DNA of 64,000 nt from Phycisphaerales bacterium UBA2396 (GTDB taxonomy: Bacteria; Planctomycetota; Phycisphaerae; Phycisphaerales; UBA1924): contig DDSG01000029.1 of assembly GCA_002343325.1 (NCBI GenBank), positions 4,718-68,717 of the forward strand. Reading direction: 5' to 3'. A model generated the notes under the pieces. The model had not been told where the DNA came from, ran no database searches, and saw only the letters and a program-made list of their open reading frames with translations. How positions within the stretch are numbered: position 1 is the stretch's first letter; every line of letters starts with the position of its first letter. Positions 23,010-44,646 of this stretch are shown one piece after another. The translations under genes and the position numbers were made by a program.

Positions 23010-24692
23010 ATGCCGACCTTCATTGTTCTTGACCGGACAGGACAACCCGCGACCGCGGAAGCGGTCGGGTCGATGCACGCGTTCGGGCCGGATGATCTGC
23101 CGGTGCAGTCGGAGATCACGTTCGAGCGTGGGGTGATCGGGGTGAAGCGGTCGGTGCCGGACTCGACGGGGCTGTGCGTTCAGGTGGAGGTGCCCAGCCC
23201 GAGCGGGTCGGGCTCGCTGGGGCGGCTGACGTTGCAGACGGCACTTTTGCCGAATCGGGACGAACCTTACCTGCTCTCGCTGGAGTTGGCGCGTCGGCAG
23301 ATCATGCTGTTCCTCAACAAGCTGGAGGAATGGGGGCTGTTCGACTTTGGGCCGGCGGAGATGGTGCTCAGGCAGTTCGAGGCCGCGCGTCAGCGGTTCA
23401 CGGCGTCGCTGGTGGCGGCGCACCGGGCGCCCACGGCGGAGCTGGACCCTCGGGCCGAGGCGGATCGGCTGGCGTGGGAGGCGTTGTCGCTCGCGGTGGA
23501 CGCGGGCGAGCGGCTGGCCTTGCTCGACGCGGAGAAGCAGTTCCCGGGTCGGCTGACGGGGCAGGGGTATGCCGAGGCGGTCCGGACGTACACGAAGCTG
23601 ACGGCGGAGACGCCCGCGCAGGGCGCGGCGATTGCGCTCTCGAGCCACACCGGGGTGGTGCTGCCCGGGCTGGCATCGATGGGGATCTGCGTCGAGCCGA
23701 CGCAGTTCGCCGAGCCTTTGCACAAGGCGGTGGCGGCGGCGGCAGACTTTGTCGCGGTGCCCATGCGCTGGTCGGAGATGGAGCCGGGCGAGGGCAAGTA
23801 CGCCTTTGGCAACACGGACCGGTGGATCGAGTGGGCGATCCGCAGCGCGAAGCTGCCCGTCGTGGCGGGGCCTCTGCTTGATTTCCGGGCGGCGTGCCTG
23901 CCCGAGTGGCTTTTCATCTGGGAGAACGACTACGAGACGCTGCGCGACCTGGTGGTCGAGCACCTGCAGCAGGTGGTGACGCGGTATCGCCGGACGGTCT
24001 CGCGGTGGACGGTGGCCTCGGGGCTGCACGTCAACAGCGACTTCAACCTGTCGGTGGATCAGATCATCGACCTGACGCGGGTGGCGACGGCGGTGGTGCG
24101 GAAGCTGCACCCGCAGGGGCGGATTCAGCTCGCAATCGACGAACCTTGGGGCGAGTATCACGCCGCGCGGAAGCGGTCGATCCCGCCGCTGCTGTACGCG
24201 GACGCGTTGATGCAGGTGGGCGTGAACGTTGACGCACTGGGCGTCCGGGTGGCGATGGGGCAGGGCGCCTCGGGGCGGACCACGCGCGACCTGATGAGCC
24301 TGTCGTCGATGCTGGACCGGTACGCCCAGTTCAATCGCCCGCTGGCGATCACGGCGGTGGGCGTCCCGAGCACGGCGAGCTCGGCCGAGCCGGACGCCGA
24401 GAGTGATCGGCCGGTGCACGGTGGGAGCTGGCGTGCGGGGTGGAGCGAGGCGGGCCAGGCGGACTGGACGAGCCAGGCGCTGGGGATCATGCTGGCCAAG
24501 CCTTATGTGCAGTCGGTGTGCTGGCAGCAATTGGCGGATCCGGCGGGGTCGGGGTACGCGGAGATGCCCGGGGGCGGGCTGGTGAACGCGGGCGGGCAGC
24601 CCAAGCCCGTGCTGGAGCGTTGGATGCAGGCTCGAGCCGCGATGCGGGCCGGGCGTGCGCCGGCGGGCATTCCGAACTTTGGCGCGTTCTAG
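23010..24692 (+). CDS. cytoplasmic GH10-like (xylanase-like TIM-barrel) domain protein, possibly non-catalytic
   Basis: AVPMRWSEMEPGEGKYAFGNTDRWIEWA resembles the GH10 WNEM-x-EPG-x-F-F block. No signal peptide. The usual ITELD nucleophile block is not evident (RPLAITAVGV). Confidence 0.5.
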   Translation: MPTFIVLDRTGQPATAEAVGSMHAFGPDDLPVQSEITFERGVIGVKRSVPDSTGLCVQVEVPSPSGSGSLGRLTLQTALLPNRDEPYLLSLELARRQIMLFLNKLEEWGLFDFGPAEMVLRQFEAARQRFTASLVAAHRAPTAELDPRAEADRLAWEALSLAVDAGERLALLDAEKQFPGRLTGQGYAEAVRTYTKLTAETPAQGAAIALSSHTGVVLPGLASMGICVEPTQFAEPLHKAVAAAADFVAVPMRWSEMEPGEGKYAFGNTDRWIEWAIRSAKLPVVAGPLLDFRAACLPEWLFIWENDYETLRDLVVEHLQQVVTRYRRTVSRWTVASGLHVNSDFNLSVDQIIDLTRVATAVVRKLHPQGRIQLAIDEPWGEYHAARKRSIPPLLYADALMQVGVNVDALGVRVAMGQGASGRTTRDLMSLSSMLDRYAQFNRPLAITAVGVPSTASSAEPDAESDRPVHGGSWRAGWSEAGQADWTSQALGIMLAKPYVQSVCWQQLADPAGSGYAEMPGGGLVNAGGQPKPVLERWMQARAAMRAGRAPAGIPNFGAF

Positions 24693-37482: not shown

Positions 37483-38376
37483 TTACTGACCGACGCGGGG
37501 GTTGTTGACCCAACCCCACTTGACCGCCCCGAAGCGGTACAAGCGGTACCAATCCTGCTTCGTGCCCTTCATGTTGATGTACAGGTGGTTCGCGTTGAAA
37601 TCGCGGGCCGCATCCCCGGGGGCCACTTCCCGCGGCCCGGTCGGTGCCTTGAACAGATACACCGTGTTGTCCAGGTTCGCCACGTGCCCGCCCTTGCTGT
37701 GCCGCCGCGTCACCTGGTCATAGTTCCCCCACAGCCCGTCGACGTACGTGTCGTTGTACACCGGCGTGCTCTCCTCCACGAAGATCGGCAGCCCCGGCAT
37801 CGGCACAAGCCGGTTCACCACCTGCACGTTCGTCAACCGGATCACTCCCTCCAGCGTCCCGTCCGGCGGCAGATACGCCACCTGCGGCTTGATGTAGTTC
37901 CTCGCTCCCTCCAACTCACCCGGCATCGTGTAGTCGAACAGAATCCCCACGTCCGAGTTCCACATGTTGTTGCTGTTGGCCGAGTAGTTGCCCCGGTTCC
38001 GCTTGTTCGTCGGACACTCCGCGATCTGTGGCACGTTCGCCGCGTACTGGAACGCCCATCCCGGAGTATCACGCCGCGGATCATTCGGAGCGGCCCGATC
38101 CTCGATCCGCGCCCACCAAGCGTTGCCCGACCAGTTCGCCGTGTTGCGGACCCCGCCGTTGGGCATCCGCGGCGCAATGATCCACACCTGTTCCTTGTAG
38201 TCGTTCGCGTAGAACAGCGACGTCCACGACAACTCGCGGATGTTGCTCAGGCACTTCACCTCGCGAGCAATCTCCCTCGCCTTTCCCAGCGCGGGCAGCA
38301 GCAGCCCCACCAGCATCGCCACGATCGCGATCACCACCAGCAGCTCGATCAACGTGAACGCGCTTCGACGAACCAT
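37483..38376 (-). CDS. DUF1559 (H-X9-DG) protein with prepilin-type N-terminal cleavage/methylation domain
   Basis: [35 protein letters not shown] is a type IV pilin-like signal. The C-terminal [15 protein letters not shown] fits the H-X9-DG motif. Abundant family in Planctomycetota. Confidence 0.85.
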
Positions 38377-38564
38377 CACCGGCCTCCTCGCGCCCACTCA
38401 CCCCGGCCCGAACGGCACGCCGAGAACTCGACGCTCGAACCCGCTCGGGCCATCCACCCCCGCACTATACCGATTCCTCATCCCTCCACAACACCCGCAT
38501 CCCCCTAGACTTCCCTTCGAACCGCCTCCGCAGGCCCCGTTGGTCCCCACGAACGCCCTCCACC

Positions 38565-40849: not shown

Positions 40850-41392
40850 TCAGCGAACGGCCGGGGCCTGCGGCTCGTCCTTCTCAAATTCCTTGTGCGC
40901 AGCGTCCTTGTGCGACTTGATCTTGCCGAGCGTGGCCTTCGCCTCGGCCGTCTTCCCGTCCAGGACCTGCTCCTCCAGCTCGATCAGCATCTTCAGCAGC
41001 GTGATGTGCGACCGGCGGTACGCCTCCTGGCCCTTCTCGGAAGGATCCTTGATGTTCGAGGGCTTCATCCGCTTCGCGCCCACGCACGCGCTCTGCATCT
41101 GCGAGATGTCCGCGAGATTCGCCTCTTTCTGATCCGCCTTGTCGATGTTCGCCTCGAGGTTCTTCATCGAGCGATTCATGATCTTCATCGCCTGCTCGAG
41201 CGCCCTCGCGCTGTCCACCGCCGCGGGCCTCTGACCCGCCGGAGGGGCCGTCGGCTGCACCGGCCGACCCTCGGGCTGCGTGGGCGCCACGCCCGTCGGC
41301 TTCTCTCGCACCGGCGCAGGCTGCGCCACCACCGCCGCACACGCCACCGCCAGCCCCAGAACGCCCATCGCCAACGTGCCATTCCCTGCCAT
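40850..41392 (-). CDS. periplasmic cytochrome b562-family four-helix-bundle protein
   Basis: Signal peptide MAGNGTLAMGVLGLAVACAAVVAQP. Helical body with Met near the N-terminus and C-terminal ...SHKDAAHKEF resembling CybC ...NAYHQKYR. Start at the internal Met. Confidence 0.55.
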   Translation of the reverse strand: MAGNGTLAMGVLGLAVACAAVVAQPAPVREKPTGVAPTQPEGRPVQPTAPPAGQRPAAVDSARALEQAMKIMNRSMKNLEANIDKADQKEANLADISQMQSACVGAKRMKPSNIKDPSEKGQEAYRRSHITLLKMLIELEEQVLDGKTAEAKATLGKIKSHKDAAHKEFEKDEPQAPAVR

Positions 41393-41514
41393 AAACGATG
41401 CCTCCTTCGTCGTATCCCAAACCTGTTCCGAACCAACCCGAGTATACCTCCATCGGCACCGGAACCCTCGGCTCTCGACAAACCCGCCGCCGCCCCGCAC
41501 AGTACAGTCCCATC

Positions 41515-44500
41515 ATGCGAACGCTGCGTTCATCGCTCCACTTGCTCGCCCTGCCCATCGCCCTTGCTTCGTGCGCCCACACTCTTCCCTCCGCCGACGC
41601 CACCACCCCCACGCCGCCCCCCAAACCCACCCCCAACGCGGTTCGTGCCGATGGGTCCGCCCTGCGCGACGAGTACCAGCTCTATTGGGCCGACGAGTTC
41701 AACGGCACCTCGCTCGACGAGTCCAAGTGGGGGTTCTGGCTCCAGGGCAAGTACCGCGACGGTTTCAACTCCCGCGACGCCGTCTCCGTCGCCGACGGCG
41801 TCCTCTCCATCACCATCTCCAAACAGCCCCGCCTCAACGCCCAAGGCGTCCGCGAAGATCGCTTCCTCTCCGCCATGCTCACCACCGAACGCAAGTTCGA
41901 GACCACCTACGGCTACTTCGAGGCACGCCTCAAGTTCCAGACCCAGCCCGGCTTCTGGTCCGCTTTCTGGATCAACACCCCCACCATGGGCAAGCCCACA
42001 CACGACCCCGCGCGATCCGGCGTCGAGATCGACATCATCGAGTACCTCGCCACGCCCACCTACCGCAACCGTGCGCTCCACACGATCCACTGGGACGCCA
42101 AGACCCCGCACCACCAGCGCGACCACACCAACATCCCCATCAAAGGCTTCGGCGAGTCGTGGCACACCGTCGCCGCCGAGTGGACACCCACCGAGATCGT
42201 CTTCTTCGTCGACGGCAAAGAGACCTGGCGCACCACCAAAGCCATCTCCAAACGCCCCCAGTACCTCGTGCTGAGCTGCGAGATCGGCGATTGGGCCGGC
42301 GACATCCGCACCGCGACCCTCCCCGACCGCTTCCAGGCCGACTACGTCCGCGTCTACAAGCGCAACAAGAGTGACGCACGCGCCGCCGCCGCCGATGAAT
42401 CGCCCCGCCTCCAGCCCCCCGAGCCCAACGCCCTGCGGGCCTACTTCACTCGCCATCCCAATGACCGCATCGACGCCGCCGCACCTTGGAACCCAGCCGC
42501 CCCCGTCACTAAGGCCGACGCTCAGCGTTATCGCGACGCCATGTGGCAGGCCTACGCCGCCGCACCGGGTCCGATGCAATCCGCCTTGAAGAGCATGGTC
42601 GAGGCCGGCGCGATCACTGTCGGCAACGCCTCCATGCCGTACGTCCTCCAGCAGCGCGGGCCGCTCCCCCCGCGTGGCTGGCCCACCACGATCTCCCTCC
42701 ACGGCGGGGGCAACGTCGCCAAGGACATCAACGACCGCCAATGGCAGAACCAGCAAGGCCGATACCAGCCCGATGGAGTCGCCATCTTCCCCCGCGCCGC
42801 GATCGACGGCCCCGGGCTCTGGCACGCCGCCCACAACTACGACCTCTTCGATCGGCTCGTCCGCGCCGCCATCCTCTTCCACAAGGCCGACCCCGATCGC
42901 ATCTACCTCATGGGCTACTCCGAGGGCGGCTACGGCGCCAACCGGCTCGCCCCCAACATGGCCGACCGCTTCGCCGCCTTCTCCGTCGCCGCCGCGGGCG
43001 AAATGCTCGACCGCGCTCCCGCCGAGAATCTCCGAAACCTCCCCATGAACCTGCAGGTCGGCGAGAAAGACCCCGGCTTTGACCGCATCGGCCTGGCACG
43101 AACCTGGGCCGAGCGGCTGCGTTCCCTCGCCGCCAATGACCCCTTCCCGCAGGACTCGCCCTACCAGATCGAGTTCGTCGAACACCCCGGCAAAGGCCAC
43201 GCCATCGACGACCGATCCTCCACCGCCTGGATGCTCGCCCGCGTCCGCAACCCCGTCCCGCGCCGAATCGTCTGGACTCAATCCGGCCCAGCCCAGACCC
43301 ATCGTTACTGGCTCAAGCTCGACCAGCCCATCCCCCATGGCACGCAACCAGCCTGGGAGAACCGCCCGCAGTCCATCGACGCCCGCGTCGACGGGCAGAC
43401 CATCACCCTCGATGTTCGCGGCGGGCTCCCCTCCGTCACCGTCCGCCTCGACGATCGCCTCCTCGACCTCGACAAGCCCGTCTCCATCGTCGTCAACGGC
43501 TCCCAGGCCTTCTCGGGCATGATCGCGCGAAGCCTCAAGACCCTCGCGCAAACCCTCGAAGAACGCGGCGACCCCAAGCTCATGTTCTCCGCCGAGGTCA
43601 CCGTCCAGGTGCCCGCCTCACCCCCGCTCCCCGCCGATCAGGCCGAAGCGCAGGCCGTCCGCGACGCCCTGACCCGCGCCGGCCCCAACGCCGCCGAGTT
43701 CGAGTCGGCCCTCGCCCAACTCTCCGGCGAAGAACGCGAGTCGCTCTGGTTCCTCATCCGCACCATGCCCGACCGCGACCTCCGCGAGCTCAAGGCCGAC
43801 CTCCTCCTCAGCAACGTTCGCCTCGCGCACCGCGCCTGGAAGGAATCCCCCTGGGGATCGACCATCAGCCAGGCCCATTTCCGCCAGTACATCCTCCCCC
43901 TCGCGCACCTCAACGAGAAACGCGAAGACTGGCGCACAGGCTTCTTCGAACGATTCCGCGAAAAGGCCTGGTCCTTCCGCGACCCCATCGAGGCCACCAA
44001 GTGGCTCAACGACACCCTCAACAACACCCTCAACGTCCATTACCACGCCACCAAACGCCCCAAGCCCGACCAGAGCCCCTCCGAATCCATCGCCGCCGGC
44101 TACGCCTCGTGCACCGGGCTCAGCATTCTCCTCGCCGACGTCTGCCGCGCCGTCGGGATCCCCGCCCGAATCGTCGGCGTCCCACTCTGGACCAAAATCG
44201 AAGGCAATCACAACTGGGTCGAGGTTTGGGGCGGGCCCATCGAGGGCGACCGCTTCGTCCGCCGCTGGTACAACGTCGGCGGCACCGGCAGCGACCCCCG
44301 CGACGGCGACTGGGTCAACGAACGCTGCCGCGAACAGACCGACCCCGACAAGCCCGAGCACATGGTCTACGCCGCCGTCACCAGGCAGGCCGATCGCCAC
44401 TTCCCCCTCGTCTGGGACCGCTCCATTACCTACGTCCCCGCCCACAACGTCACCCGCTTCTACAAAACACCCGTCGACGTCGCGCCGCCCCTCGGCACCG

Positions 44501-44646
44501 ACGCCTCAGCCGAAATCTGGTGGAACGGCGAACTCGTCGCGTTCGTCCGCGGCGACATCAAGGTTCCTCTCGCCGCAGGCGAGCGATTCGTTGTCCGCCG
44601 CCGCGACGCCTCCGGCGCCTGGATCACCAGCGACCTCAACCCCTGA
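41515..44646 (+). CDS. multidomain lipoprotein: GH16 beta-glucanase domain + alpha/beta-hydrolase (esterase) domain + transglutaminase-like cysteine protease domain
   Basis: Lipobox LLALPIALASC. GH16 catalytic motif EIDIIE in a laminarinase-like jelly roll (YGYFEARLKFQ...WSAFW). GxSxG nucleophile elbow LMGYSEGG. Transglutaminase core GYASCTGLSILLADVCRAVGIPARIVG...NHNWVEVW. Confidence 0.8.
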   Translation: MRTLRSSLHLLALPIALASCAHTLPSADATTPTPPPKPTPNAVRADGSALRDEYQLYWADEFNGTSLDESKWGFWLQGKYRDGFNSRDAVSVADGVLSITISKQPRLNAQGVREDRFLSAMLTTERKFETTYGYFEARLKFQTQPGFWSAFWINTPTMGKPTHDPARSGVEIDIIEYLATPTYRNRALHTIHWDAKTPHHQRDHTNIPIKGFGESWHTVAAEWTPTEIVFFVDGKETWRTTKAISKRPQYLVLSCEIGDWAGDIRTATLPDRFQADYVRVYKRNKSDARAAAADESPRLQPPEPNALRAYFTRHPNDRIDAAAPWNPAAPVTKADAQRYRDAMWQAYAAAPGPMQSALKSMVEAGAITVGNASMPYVLQQRGPLPPRGWPTTISLHGGGNVAKDINDRQWQNQQGRYQPDGVAIFPRAAIDGPGLWHAAHNYDLFDRLVRAAILFHKADPDRIYLMGYSEGGYGANRLAPNMADRFAAFSVAAAGEMLDRAPAENLRNLPMNLQVGEKDPGFDRIGLARTWAERLRSLAANDPFPQDSPYQIEFVEHPGKGHAIDDRSSTAWMLARVRNPVPRRIVWTQSGPAQTHRYWLKLDQPIPHGTQPAWENRPQSIDARVDGQTITLDVRGGLPSVTVRLDDRLLDLDKPVSIVVNGSQAFSGMIARSLKTLAQTLEERGDPKLMFSAEVTVQVPASPPLPADQAEAQAVRDALTRAGPNAAEFESALAQLSGEERESLWFLIRTMPDRDLRELKADLLLSNVRLAHRAWKESPWGSTISQAHFRQYILPLAHLNEKREDWRTGFFERFREKAWSFRDPIEATKWLNDTLNNTLNVHYHATKRPKPDQSPSESIAAGYASCTGLSILLADVCRAVGIPARIVGVPLWTKIEGNHNWVEVWGGPIEGDRFVRRWYNVGGTGSDPRDGDWVNERCREQTDPDKPEHMVYAAVTRQADRHFPLVWDRSITYVPAHNVTRFYKTPVDVAPPLGTDASAEIWWNGELVAFVRGDIKVPLAAGERFVVRRRDASGAWITSDLNP

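Follow-up and report, generated by a model that had tools for sequence, protein, structure and literature searches.

A rare predicted lipoprotein from a Phycisphaerales bacterium joins a GH16 module to a recurrent pair of alpha/beta-hydrolase and transglutaminase-fold modules

Introduction

We found that a single gene of Phycisphaerales bacterium UBA2396 encodes a predicted lipoprotein on which a GH16 beta-glycanase, an alpha/beta-hydrolase (E) and a transglutaminase-fold enzyme (T) follow one another, and that E and T are repeatedly paired in Planctomycetota and Verrucomicrobiota, either encoded by neighbouring genes or fused in one of two orders, T-E or E-T. The triple fusion, GH16-E-T, is very rare. 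The gene lies in a 64,000-nucleotide stretch of contig DDSG01000029.1, hereafter the window. Our best explanation, in which we place about even confidence, is an exported lipoprotein with three hydrolytic sites acting on one decorated glycoconjugate through backbone, ester and amide or peptide cuts.

Planctomycetota and Verrucomicrobiota play a major part in degrading complex glycans, yet the majority of the enzymes that they export have still to be characterised. GH16-E-T is a 'Rosetta stone' fusion, as it links a widespread, unstudied hydrolase pair to a recognisable type of glycoside hydrolase. The pair combines a serine hydrolase resembling LC-Est1 with a cysteine enzyme of transglutaminase fold, and the fusion offers a concrete starting hypothesis. 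We found no characterised member of the GH16-E-T architecture or of the E/T pair in the literature.

Results

The triple fusion is an intact, conserved gene

The GH16-E-T gene and its N-terminal features are as follows.

41515-44646, + strand: GH16-E-T gene, 1043 aa; signal peptide and lipobox followed by three modules (GH16; E, alpha/beta-hydrolase; T, transglutaminase-fold)
41515..41574, + strand: signal peptide with lipobox L17-A-S-C20, MRTLRSSLHLLALPIALASC; Cys20 at 41572-41574; predicted lipoprotein by pattern match
41575..41673, + strand: Pro/Thr-rich tether, residues 21-53, AHTLPSADATTPTPPPKPTPNAVRADGSALRDE; low-complexity and outside all homology matches

The open reading frame that contains the gene runs from 41398 to 44646 on the + strand and ends with a TGA at 44644-44646. 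Public calls of exactly this gene start at ATG 41398, which gives 1082 aa. We consider ATG 41515 (1043 aa) to be the better start because the orthologues P0002 and P0003 open directly with an equivalent signal peptide (MLxRSTLT...LAAC) and because a JGI gene call, 90% identical, is 1037 aa. The GC3 of the reading frame is 0.87 versus a GC2 of 0.50 in a window of 66% GC, a contrast that is expected for a genuine coding sequence.

The initial annotation had described three separate catalytic modules on one lipoprotein, and this description holds: the active-site residues are intact and the lipobox is conserved. Each motif that it quoted was found at the expected place, namely EIDIIE at residues 171-176, GYSEGG at 467-472, ASCTG at 864-868 and NHNWVEVW at 898-905, and we located the lipobox LASC at 17-20 and HGGG at 396-399. 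Its concern that the catalytic residues might be mutated in all three modules was not borne out; all nine are also retained in two diverged orthologue clusters (P0002 and P0003, 54% identical).

These data bear on whether the architecture could be an error of assembly or annotation, or the gene could be in decay. High GC content does yield long spurious reading frames, and the start codon differs among public gene calls. However, the same architecture is present in independent data (NCBI/ENA, JGI and Logan members of the P0001 cluster), the two orthologue clusters keep every catalytic residue, the GC3 is high, and E and T, modelled singly by AF2 in place of the multidomain model that had been suggested, both reach a pLDDT above 93. 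Given the conserved orthologues, we regard an artefact or decay as effectively refuted and its probability as negligible.

The residues L17-A-S-C20 match the lipobox pattern [LVI][ASTVI][GAS]C and are preceded by a basic n-region and a hydrophobic h-region. The equivalents in P0002 and P0003 are ...LLAAC and ...ILAAC. This suggests that the protein is an exported, membrane-tethered lipoprotein that is probably exposed at the surface. Most stand-alone E and T proteins also have signal-peptide-like N-termini as judged by a crude regular-expression heuristic rather than a trained predictor.

Among PDB structures, the GH16 module is closest to laminarinases

41674..42363, + strand: GH16 beta-glycanase module, residues 54-283 (PF00722 and PDB matches)
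42025-42027, 42031-42033 and 42040-42042, + strand: GH16 catalytic residues E171, D173 and E176

Pfam PF00722 matched residues 86-278 with 68.2 bits (cut-off 22, E=8e-19), which places the module in family GH16. The PDB beta-1,3-glucanases 9voq and 3atg matched at E about 1e-19 to 5e-20, and E171-I-D173-I-I-E176 aligned with the EIDIME of both, giving the E-x-D-x-(x)-E signature of GH16; variants of this motif were present in 90 of the 99 GH16 homologues checked. When PDB entries were ranked, laminarinases came first (1e-20 to 1e-11), followed by carrageenase (7e-10), the O-glycan-active GH16 enzyme 6t2r (3e-9), porphyranase (6e-8) and lichenases (1e-5 or weaker). The closest relatives, at 45-53% identity, are uncharacterised planctomycete multidomain proteins, and thus the substrate may differ from plain laminarin. 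Within this clade the GH16 module is fused to SASA (P0032), to GDSL (P0040 and P0088), to the same hydrolase type as E (P0374), and to GH29 (fucosidase), BNR (sialidase-like), GH3 and beta-helix modules. A fucoidan paper (PMC11685898) was considered as a GH16 source and set aside, as its matches are GH168 and irrelevant here.

The E module is an alpha/beta-hydrolase, probably an esterase

42424..43239, + strand: E module, helical N-terminal part (residues 304-364) and catalytic core (365-575), from AF2, Foldseek and conservation
42919-42921, 43069-43071 and 43198-43200, + strand: E catalytic residues Ser469, Asp519 and His562, with HGGG at residues 396-399
43264..43608, + strand: beta-sandwich, residues 584-698, invariably present after the E core (strands 285-399 by DSSP in the E model)

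The E module covers about residues 304-698. No Pfam model scored above threshold over it, and most E family members are without a Pfam hit. The AF2 model (m5485b36ddd36) has a pLDDT of 93.3, and Foldseek related it with probability 1.0 to the esterases 3doh and 3wyd. The triad and the oxyanion motif are invariant in 83 sequences (HGGG97-100, G168-x-S170-x-G172, D220 and H263 in module numbering), and the beta-sandwich is kept in stand-alone E proteins with R279, W288, W300 and D387 invariant. Thus the fold, the G-x-S-x-G elbow, the Ser-Asp-His order and the oxyanion motif are those of an alpha/beta-hydrolase serine esterase.

In a profile search the best matches of the E family were again 3wyd (6e-15) and 3doh (3e-10), which ESTHER puts in 'Abhydrolase_5', beside the CE1-type Esterase_phb (PMC12103068). 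Membership of CE1/PHB-depolymerase (Esterase_phb) itself was rejected: the NCBIfam PHA-depolymerase models NF050058 (36.7 bits, cut-off 150) and TIGR01840 (17.6 bits, cut-off 107.85) stayed far short of their thresholds, both matches being confined to the region around the elbow.

Foldseek also placed S9 dipeptidyl peptidases high for E, which we count against our best explanation. A possible alternative is that E and T are a proteolytic pair, E as an S9/DPP-like serine peptidase and T as a cysteine protease, which would degrade the protein part of a glycoprotein after GH16 opens the glycan. However, all matches of the E family profile were to esterases, cutinases or enzymes of the PHB-depolymerase type, with peptidases absent, E has no counterpart of the beta-propeller that gates S9 peptidases, and its identity to S9 enzymes is 12-17%. 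We consider a proteolytic pair unlikely. The initial annotation had named the module an alpha/beta-hydrolase esterase; the fold stands on the model, Foldseek and the triad, and remote similarity tips the choice towards an esterase over a peptidase.

The T module is a divergent transglutaminase-fold enzyme

43639..44031, + strand: T helical N-terminal domain, residues 709-839 (AF2 model m896dd6d1b139, helices 10-140, pLDDT 95-99)
44032..44469, + strand: T transglutaminase-fold catalytic core, residues 840-985
44110-44112, 44209-44211 and 44293-44295, + strand: T catalytic residues Cys866, His899 and Asp927
44470..44646, + strand: T C-terminal small beta-sandwich, residues 986-1043, and stop codon (DSSP strands 287-342 of the T model)

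The T module covers about residues 709-1043. Transglut_core (PF01841) matched it with 48.1 bits (cut-off 23), so that the Pfam scan proposed in the initial annotation put both GH16 and Transglut_core above their cut-offs. This match and the core fold place T in the PF01841 superfamily. C866 and H899 are invariant in 75 T sequences and, with D927, would form a Cys-His-Asp triad. D927 lies within an S-D-P motif; a second T clade has E-P instead. The helical N-domain is conserved in stand-alone T proteins. E and T were modelled separately, as a joint MAFFT alignment placed E proteins that stand alone across the T module (12-17% identity). The T family sequence profile detected no solved relative. 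Assignment of T to the PNGase subfamily was rejected, as T is without the CxxC zinc site and PNGase reached only a moderate fold rank and was not the closest.

T could in principle be a genuine transglutaminase, an acyl-transferase that covalently joins proteins to one another or fixes them in place, attaching for instance the enzyme or its target to a matrix of glycan or protein, and GH16 might then transglycosylate. The identity of T to transglutaminases is 12-14%, there is no acceptor substrate evidence, and the company that T keeps, a hydrolytic esterase and a GH16 module with relatives of catabolic type, suits degradation better. A transferase role therefore seems very unlikely.

E and T recur as a pair

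Species-representative genomes contain at least 586 T loci, and 80 of these were analysed. T-E fusions accounted for 29/80, E-T fusions for 4/80 and adjacent genes for 6/80, with operon-like T then E gene pairs at L007 and L008. Among the best 150 of 1.84e9 representatives we counted 58 T-E, 9 E-T, one G-E and one G-E-T architecture (G being GH16), and the triple fusion forms a single 50%-identity cluster in these 1.84 billion representatives. The nearest relatives of the window's T are Phycisphaerae T proteins that stand alone (50-57% identity, versus 37-42% to the T of T-E fusions), from which we conclude that the E-T fusion and the T-E fusions are of independent origin.

In 16 of the 80 loci, and also in L090, E/T has a CBM9-like module fused to it or encoded next to it. 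We take its family, PF06452, to belong to the DOMON-like group, and the label 'carbohydrate-binding' is therefore a weak one.

The genomic context is housekeeping

40850..41392, - strand: gene for a cytochrome b562-like exported protein, divergent from the GH16-E-T gene (PF07361; in L001 and the orthologous locus L002)

The surroundings of the GH16-E-T gene are of housekeeping type (RlmN-like radical SAM, glmS, ffh, rpoBC, carB and mfd), both within 10 kb on either side and in the remainder of the window. No transporter, regulator or other glycoside hydrolase lies beside it, and the locus lacks what would mark a polysaccharide utilisation locus (PUL): a transporter or SusC/D pair nearby, a regulator and additional CAZymes. 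The orthologous locus has one GH116 upstream and is otherwise unrelated apart from the cytochrome b562-like gene, whose product shows 39% identity by tblastn and which among the 80 loci occurs in L011 only. The suggestion of a 'new polysaccharide-utilisation architecture' finds no support here. Neighbours of stand-alone T, stand-alone E and T-E fusion genes differ by locus, the only consistent partners being E, T and the CBM9-like module; sulfatase and SASA/GDSL esterase genes adjoin E or T at two loci only (L009 and L003). Genomic context gives no substrate clue.

Such surroundings raise the question of whether the protein remodels the glycans of its own envelope or periplasm with no part in nutrient acquisition. 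It is predicted to be anchored in the cell's own membrane, its gene lies next to glmS amid core genes with no uptake or regulatory genes, and stand-alone T and E genes are similarly scattered among housekeeping genes. In contrast, restriction of the triple fusion to one cluster is unlike a core envelope function, the GH16 relatives carry fucosidase, sialidase-like and GH3 modules of a kind usual in catabolism, and E or T genes adjoin the sulfatases and esterases at L009 and L003. On balance we think envelope remodelling improbable.

Discussion

Our data show that E is evolutionarily coupled to T, and the GH16 clade to E, with catalytic residues intact throughout the triple fusion. In the reading that we favour, attack on one decorated glycoconjugate, the Pro/Thr-rich linker would tether the enzyme. 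GH16 would act as a retaining, laminarinase-like endo-beta-glycanase that cuts a beta-1,3(/1,4)-linked backbone; E, a carboxylesterase-like hydrolase with a Ser-Asp-His triad whose nearest group is LC-Est1/TmEstA, beside CE1, would take off ester-linked substituents; and T, a Cys-His-Asp transglutaminase-fold enzyme presumably working in the hydrolytic direction, would cut an amide, peptide or isopeptide link on the same material. The acylated or decorated glycan target put forward in the initial annotation is plausible, considering the esterase-type fusions of the GH16 clade and the CBM9-like partners of E/T.

A bolder proposal, which we hold tentatively and think rather less probable, is that E and T, often with the CBM9-like module, are an unrecognised PVC-wide two-enzyme system that severs glycan-protein or glycan-acyl cross-links in wall or exopolymer glycoconjugates, E cutting the ester bond and T the amide or isopeptide bond. 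If so, the rare fusions GH16-E-T and GH16-E would give a first hint of what this system acts on, namely a matrix of the beta-1,3-glucan type, for instance the walls of fungi or algae or the exopolymers of sludge, and T would be a glycan-directed amidase or isopeptidase and a new branch of the transglutaminase fold. Should T prove to be a glycoconjugate amidase or isopeptidase, the breakdown of polysaccharides would gain a new auxiliary activity; should it not, the gene is one more multi-domain CAZyme.

Each module can be set beside known enzymes. The GH16 module has the beta-jelly-roll fold and E-x-D-x-x-E motif in common with the laminarinases of Cellulosimicrobium cellulans (3atg), Thermotoga (3azx) and Zobellia (ZgLamA/C, 4bq1/4crq), and its WSAFW and W(A/S)DEF(N/D)G motifs align with theirs (E-values to 5e-20). 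However, identity to characterised laminarinases in the alignments is low, and known laminarinases are without fused E or T modules. E shares its fold and Ser-Asp-His order with the C-terminal esterase of LC-Est1 (3wyd) and Thermotoga maritima EstA (3doh), at 18-23% identity, but is set apart by a helical segment of its own at the N terminus, by the oxyanion motif HGGG and by a beta-sandwich that is always present at the C terminus. T has the core fold and Cys-His-Asp(Glu) triad of the PF01841 superfamily, which includes animal transglutaminases, the putative cysteine proteases 3isr and 3kd4, PNGase, LapG, TgpA and PeiW. It differs from these relatives in carrying a family-specific helical domain of ~130 residues at its N terminus and a small beta-sandwich at its C terminus. 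It is also exported, belongs to PVC bacteria and is regularly coupled to the E hydrolase.

As a whole, GH16-E-T resembles multi-catalytic CAZymes such as the xylanase-glucuronoyl esterase CkXyn10C-GE15A, a fusion of glycoside hydrolase and carbohydrate esterase on one chain (PMC8280721). It also resembles the Ruminococcus flavefaciens cellulosome, in which transglutaminase-like modules are found inside polysaccharide-degrading machinery as dockerin-bearing proteins, with tabulated expression fold changes of 3-4 (PMC2930009). Both of these systems are from Firmicutes, and neither combines a glycoside hydrolase, an esterase and a transglutaminase-like module on a single chain as GH16-E-T does.

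The gene and its product

The target gene lies in one uninterrupted open frame (window 41398-44646, +). The codon-position GC of this frame (GC3 0.87, GC2 0.50; sequence 66% GC) resembles that typical of real genes at 66% GC. Public gene calls start the gene at ATG 41398, which gives 1082 aa, and the initial annotation started it at ATG 41515, which gives 1043 aa. The upstream start adds 117 nt (window 41398-41514) and thereby 39 residues ahead of the signal peptide. Since the orthologues in clusters P0002 and P0003 start straight at the homologous signal peptide, and a JGI gene call with 90% identity to the window protein is 1037 aa, ATG 41515 is the preferable start. The N-terminus MRTLRSSLHLLALPIALASC has a lipobox at its end (Cys20), kept as LAAC in both orthologues, and in the target a Pro/Thr-rich tether comes after it.

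The initial annotation described a lipoprotein with three catalytic modules, and we found every motif it quoted where expected. Pfam supports the GH16 and transglutaminase-like modules and a fold model supports the hydrolase. All nine catalytic residues are intact and 9/9 are kept in P0002 and P0003, whose identity to the window protein is only 54%. That the fusion is an artefact is effectively excluded.

Modules of the target protein
Residues 54-283: GH16 module (G); Pfam PF00722, 68.2 bits, cut-off 22
Residues 304-698 (about): alpha/beta-hydrolase module (E); AlphaFold model, invariant catalytic motifs
Residues 709-1043 (about): transglutaminase-fold module (T); Pfam PF01841, 48.1 bits, cut-off 23

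The three modules

The first module belongs to GH16. Its best solved relatives are beta-1,3-glucanases (9voq, 3atg, 6xof, 5wut and 3azx; E 5e-20 to 1e-14), and it scores far more poorly against carrageenases, porphyranases and lichenases. E171-I-D173-I-I-E176 aligned with the catalytic motif of the solved beta-1,3-glucanases, and a motif of six residues is the form seen in laminarinase-type enzymes. Elsewhere this GH16 clade is fused with esterases (SASA, GDSL) and exo-glycosidases (GH29, GH3, BNR). One metagenomic representative, P0374 (680 aa), joins a GH16 module (52% identity to that of the window) to an E-type hydrolase and lacks T. Because its E part is just 31% identical to the window's, this fusion is an independent one.

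Module E matched no Pfam model at or above threshold. Membership in the CE1/PHB-depolymerase family was rejected, as the NCBIfam PHA-depolymerase models match the nucleophile elbow only, with scores far under their cut-offs. E has the features of an alpha/beta-hydrolase: the confident AlphaFold model (pLDDT 93.3, alignment of 83 homologues) comprises a helical N-segment, the hydrolase core and a C-terminal beta-sandwich, and HGGG396-399, G467-x-S469-x-G471, D519 and H562 are invariant in the alignment. Foldseek and the sequence profile agree on the closest solved proteins, LC-Est1C (3wyd, 6e-15 by profile) and Thermotoga EstA (3doh, 3e-10). ESTHER places both in 'Abhydrolase_5', whose physiological activity is undefined and which neighbours the CE1-type Esterase_phb family (PMC12103068). 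A rival reading makes E and T a proteolytic pair; S9 peptidases did match E in the fold search, only not by sequence profile, and esterase rather than peptidase chemistry seems probable. Stand-alone E proteins (446 matches, E-only search) are about 400-450 aa and mostly lack Pfam annotation.

Module T belongs to the transglutaminase-like superfamily. In its confident AlphaFold model (pLDDT 93.5, pTM 0.92) a helical domain, about 130 residues long, is joined to the transglutaminase core and a small beta-sandwich. All 75 T sequences aligned have C866 and H899; the catalytic acid is D927, set in an S-D-P motif for which a second clade has E-P. The T family profile matched no PDB sequence at E <= 0.1. 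A PNGase-like identity was ruled out, the protein having five cysteines only and no CxxC pair. T could alternatively be a true cross-linking transglutaminase; we infer the hydrolytic direction. Stand-alone T proteins are about 370 aa and occur in Phycisphaerae and other Planctomycetota (835 matches, T-only search; best 50-57% identical). At seven loci (L027, L029, L031, L034, L038, L073, L087) T forms the C-terminus of 740-1050 aa ORFs whose N-terminal 480-700 aa have no Pfam match and are not E, so T has other, uncharacterised partner domains as well.

The triple fusion is rare and the E/T pair is widespread

When 5.8 billion clusters were searched by word index, the full GH16-E-T architecture turned up in three, namely P0001 (the window protein's own), P0002 and P0003. 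Phmmer, run exhaustively against 1.84 billion representatives at 50% identity, gave 17,679 matches; among the best 150, which were classified, only P0002 spans all three modules.

Architectures among the best 150 of 17,679 representatives (phmmer)
T-E: 58
E-T: 9
G-E (P0374): 1
G-E-T: 1
E alone: 34
T alone: 33
G only: 10

T loci number at least 586 in species-representative genomes. Most labels among the best 80 are PVC, chiefly Phycisphaerae, Planctomycetia and Verrucomicrobiales.

Arrangement at the best 80 T loci
T-E fusion: 29/80
E-T fusion: 4/80
T then E, adjacent or frameshifted: 6/80
T without E, flanks adequate: 24/80
Flanks too short for judgement: 17/80

At two loci (L007, L008) stand-alone T and E genes lie side by side in the same direction. 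The window's T is nearer to stand-alone Phycisphaerae T proteins than to the T found in T-E fusions, and the E-T fusion therefore originated independently of these. Two independent fusions together with operon pairs are strong evidence that E and T act together.

At 16 of the best 80 T loci and at L090, the E/T pair has a CBM9-like module (PF06452) joined to it or immediately alongside, in varying order. In the window lineage the N-terminus, the place most often taken by this module, holds the GH16 catalytic domain. As a trio, T, E and the CBM9-like module recur in Pirellulales, Verrucomicrobiales and related groups.

Loci with a CBM9-like module, fused or adjacent and co-directional
L045, L053, L057, L058, L060-L063, L065, L069
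L070, L074, L077, L079, L083, L084, L090

Genomic context

The window, from a bioreactor-sludge metagenome contig, represents core chromosome, its genes including carB, rpoC, rpoB, mfd, ffh, icd, recJ and glmS. The proposal of a new polysaccharide-utilisation architecture was not supported, as the genes flanking the target in the window include no transporter, regulator or other CAZyme. The sole neighbour common to the target and the orthologous GH16-E-T locus (L002) is a divergent cytochrome b562-like gene, 122 bp from the target in the window. The arrangement is kept at L002 (39% identity), and this neighbour was found at none of the other 79 of the 80 T loci looked at.

Window 40850-41392 (-); L002 9009-9587: cytochrome b562-like exported protein (PF07361), divergent from target
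Window 37483-38397 (-): DUF1559/N-methyl prepilin-like protein
Window 23010-24692 (+): 560-aa ORF with GH10-like domain (Pfam E=1.7e-9)

The DUF1559 protein, of a type typical of Planctomycetota, agrees with the Phycisphaerae-like relationships of the proteins homologous to the target. Lying by itself between mfd and the ribosomal-protein/rpoBC block, the GH10-like ORF is, like the target, a lone glycoside hydrolase amid housekeeping genes. The + strand shows strongly negative GC skew over 26 kb (window 38000-64000; -0.22 to -0.40 in 2-kb windows), even though both strands carry genes there, and the cumulative curve has its maximum near 28 kb. A switch related to replication, or else an oddity of composition, could explain this. 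The surroundings of T-E genes and of T and E genes standing alone differ between loci: two have sulfatase and SASA/GDSL esterase neighbours, the others housekeeping genes.

Proposed function and comparison with known systems

The best-supported reading, to which we give an even chance, is that the target is an exported, membrane-tethered and probably surface-exposed multi-enzyme for one decorated glycoconjugate, its presumed substrate. GH16 would cut a beta-1,3-type backbone, E would take off ester-linked groups and T would cut an amide, peptide or isopeptide link. This reading is based on the catalytic integrity of the three modules, the E-T, G-E and CBM9-like associations, and the GH16 clade's fusions with esterases and exo-glycosidases. 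A rival is that such an enzyme remodels the cell's own envelope, to which the membrane tether would also be suited.

Each of the three modules falls within a known superfamily or resembles one, and GH-esterase fusions are common. Our literature searches turned up no account of either the E/T pair or the triple fusion. On its own the GH16-E-T fusion is a curiosity, and a rare one; what makes it useful is the pointer it gives to what the E/T enzyme pair, widespread in the PVC superphylum yet unstudied, does. The cellulosome of Ruminococcus flavefaciens, in which transglutaminase-like proteins occur with no function assigned, shares with the target the presence of transglutaminase-like modules (PMC2930009).
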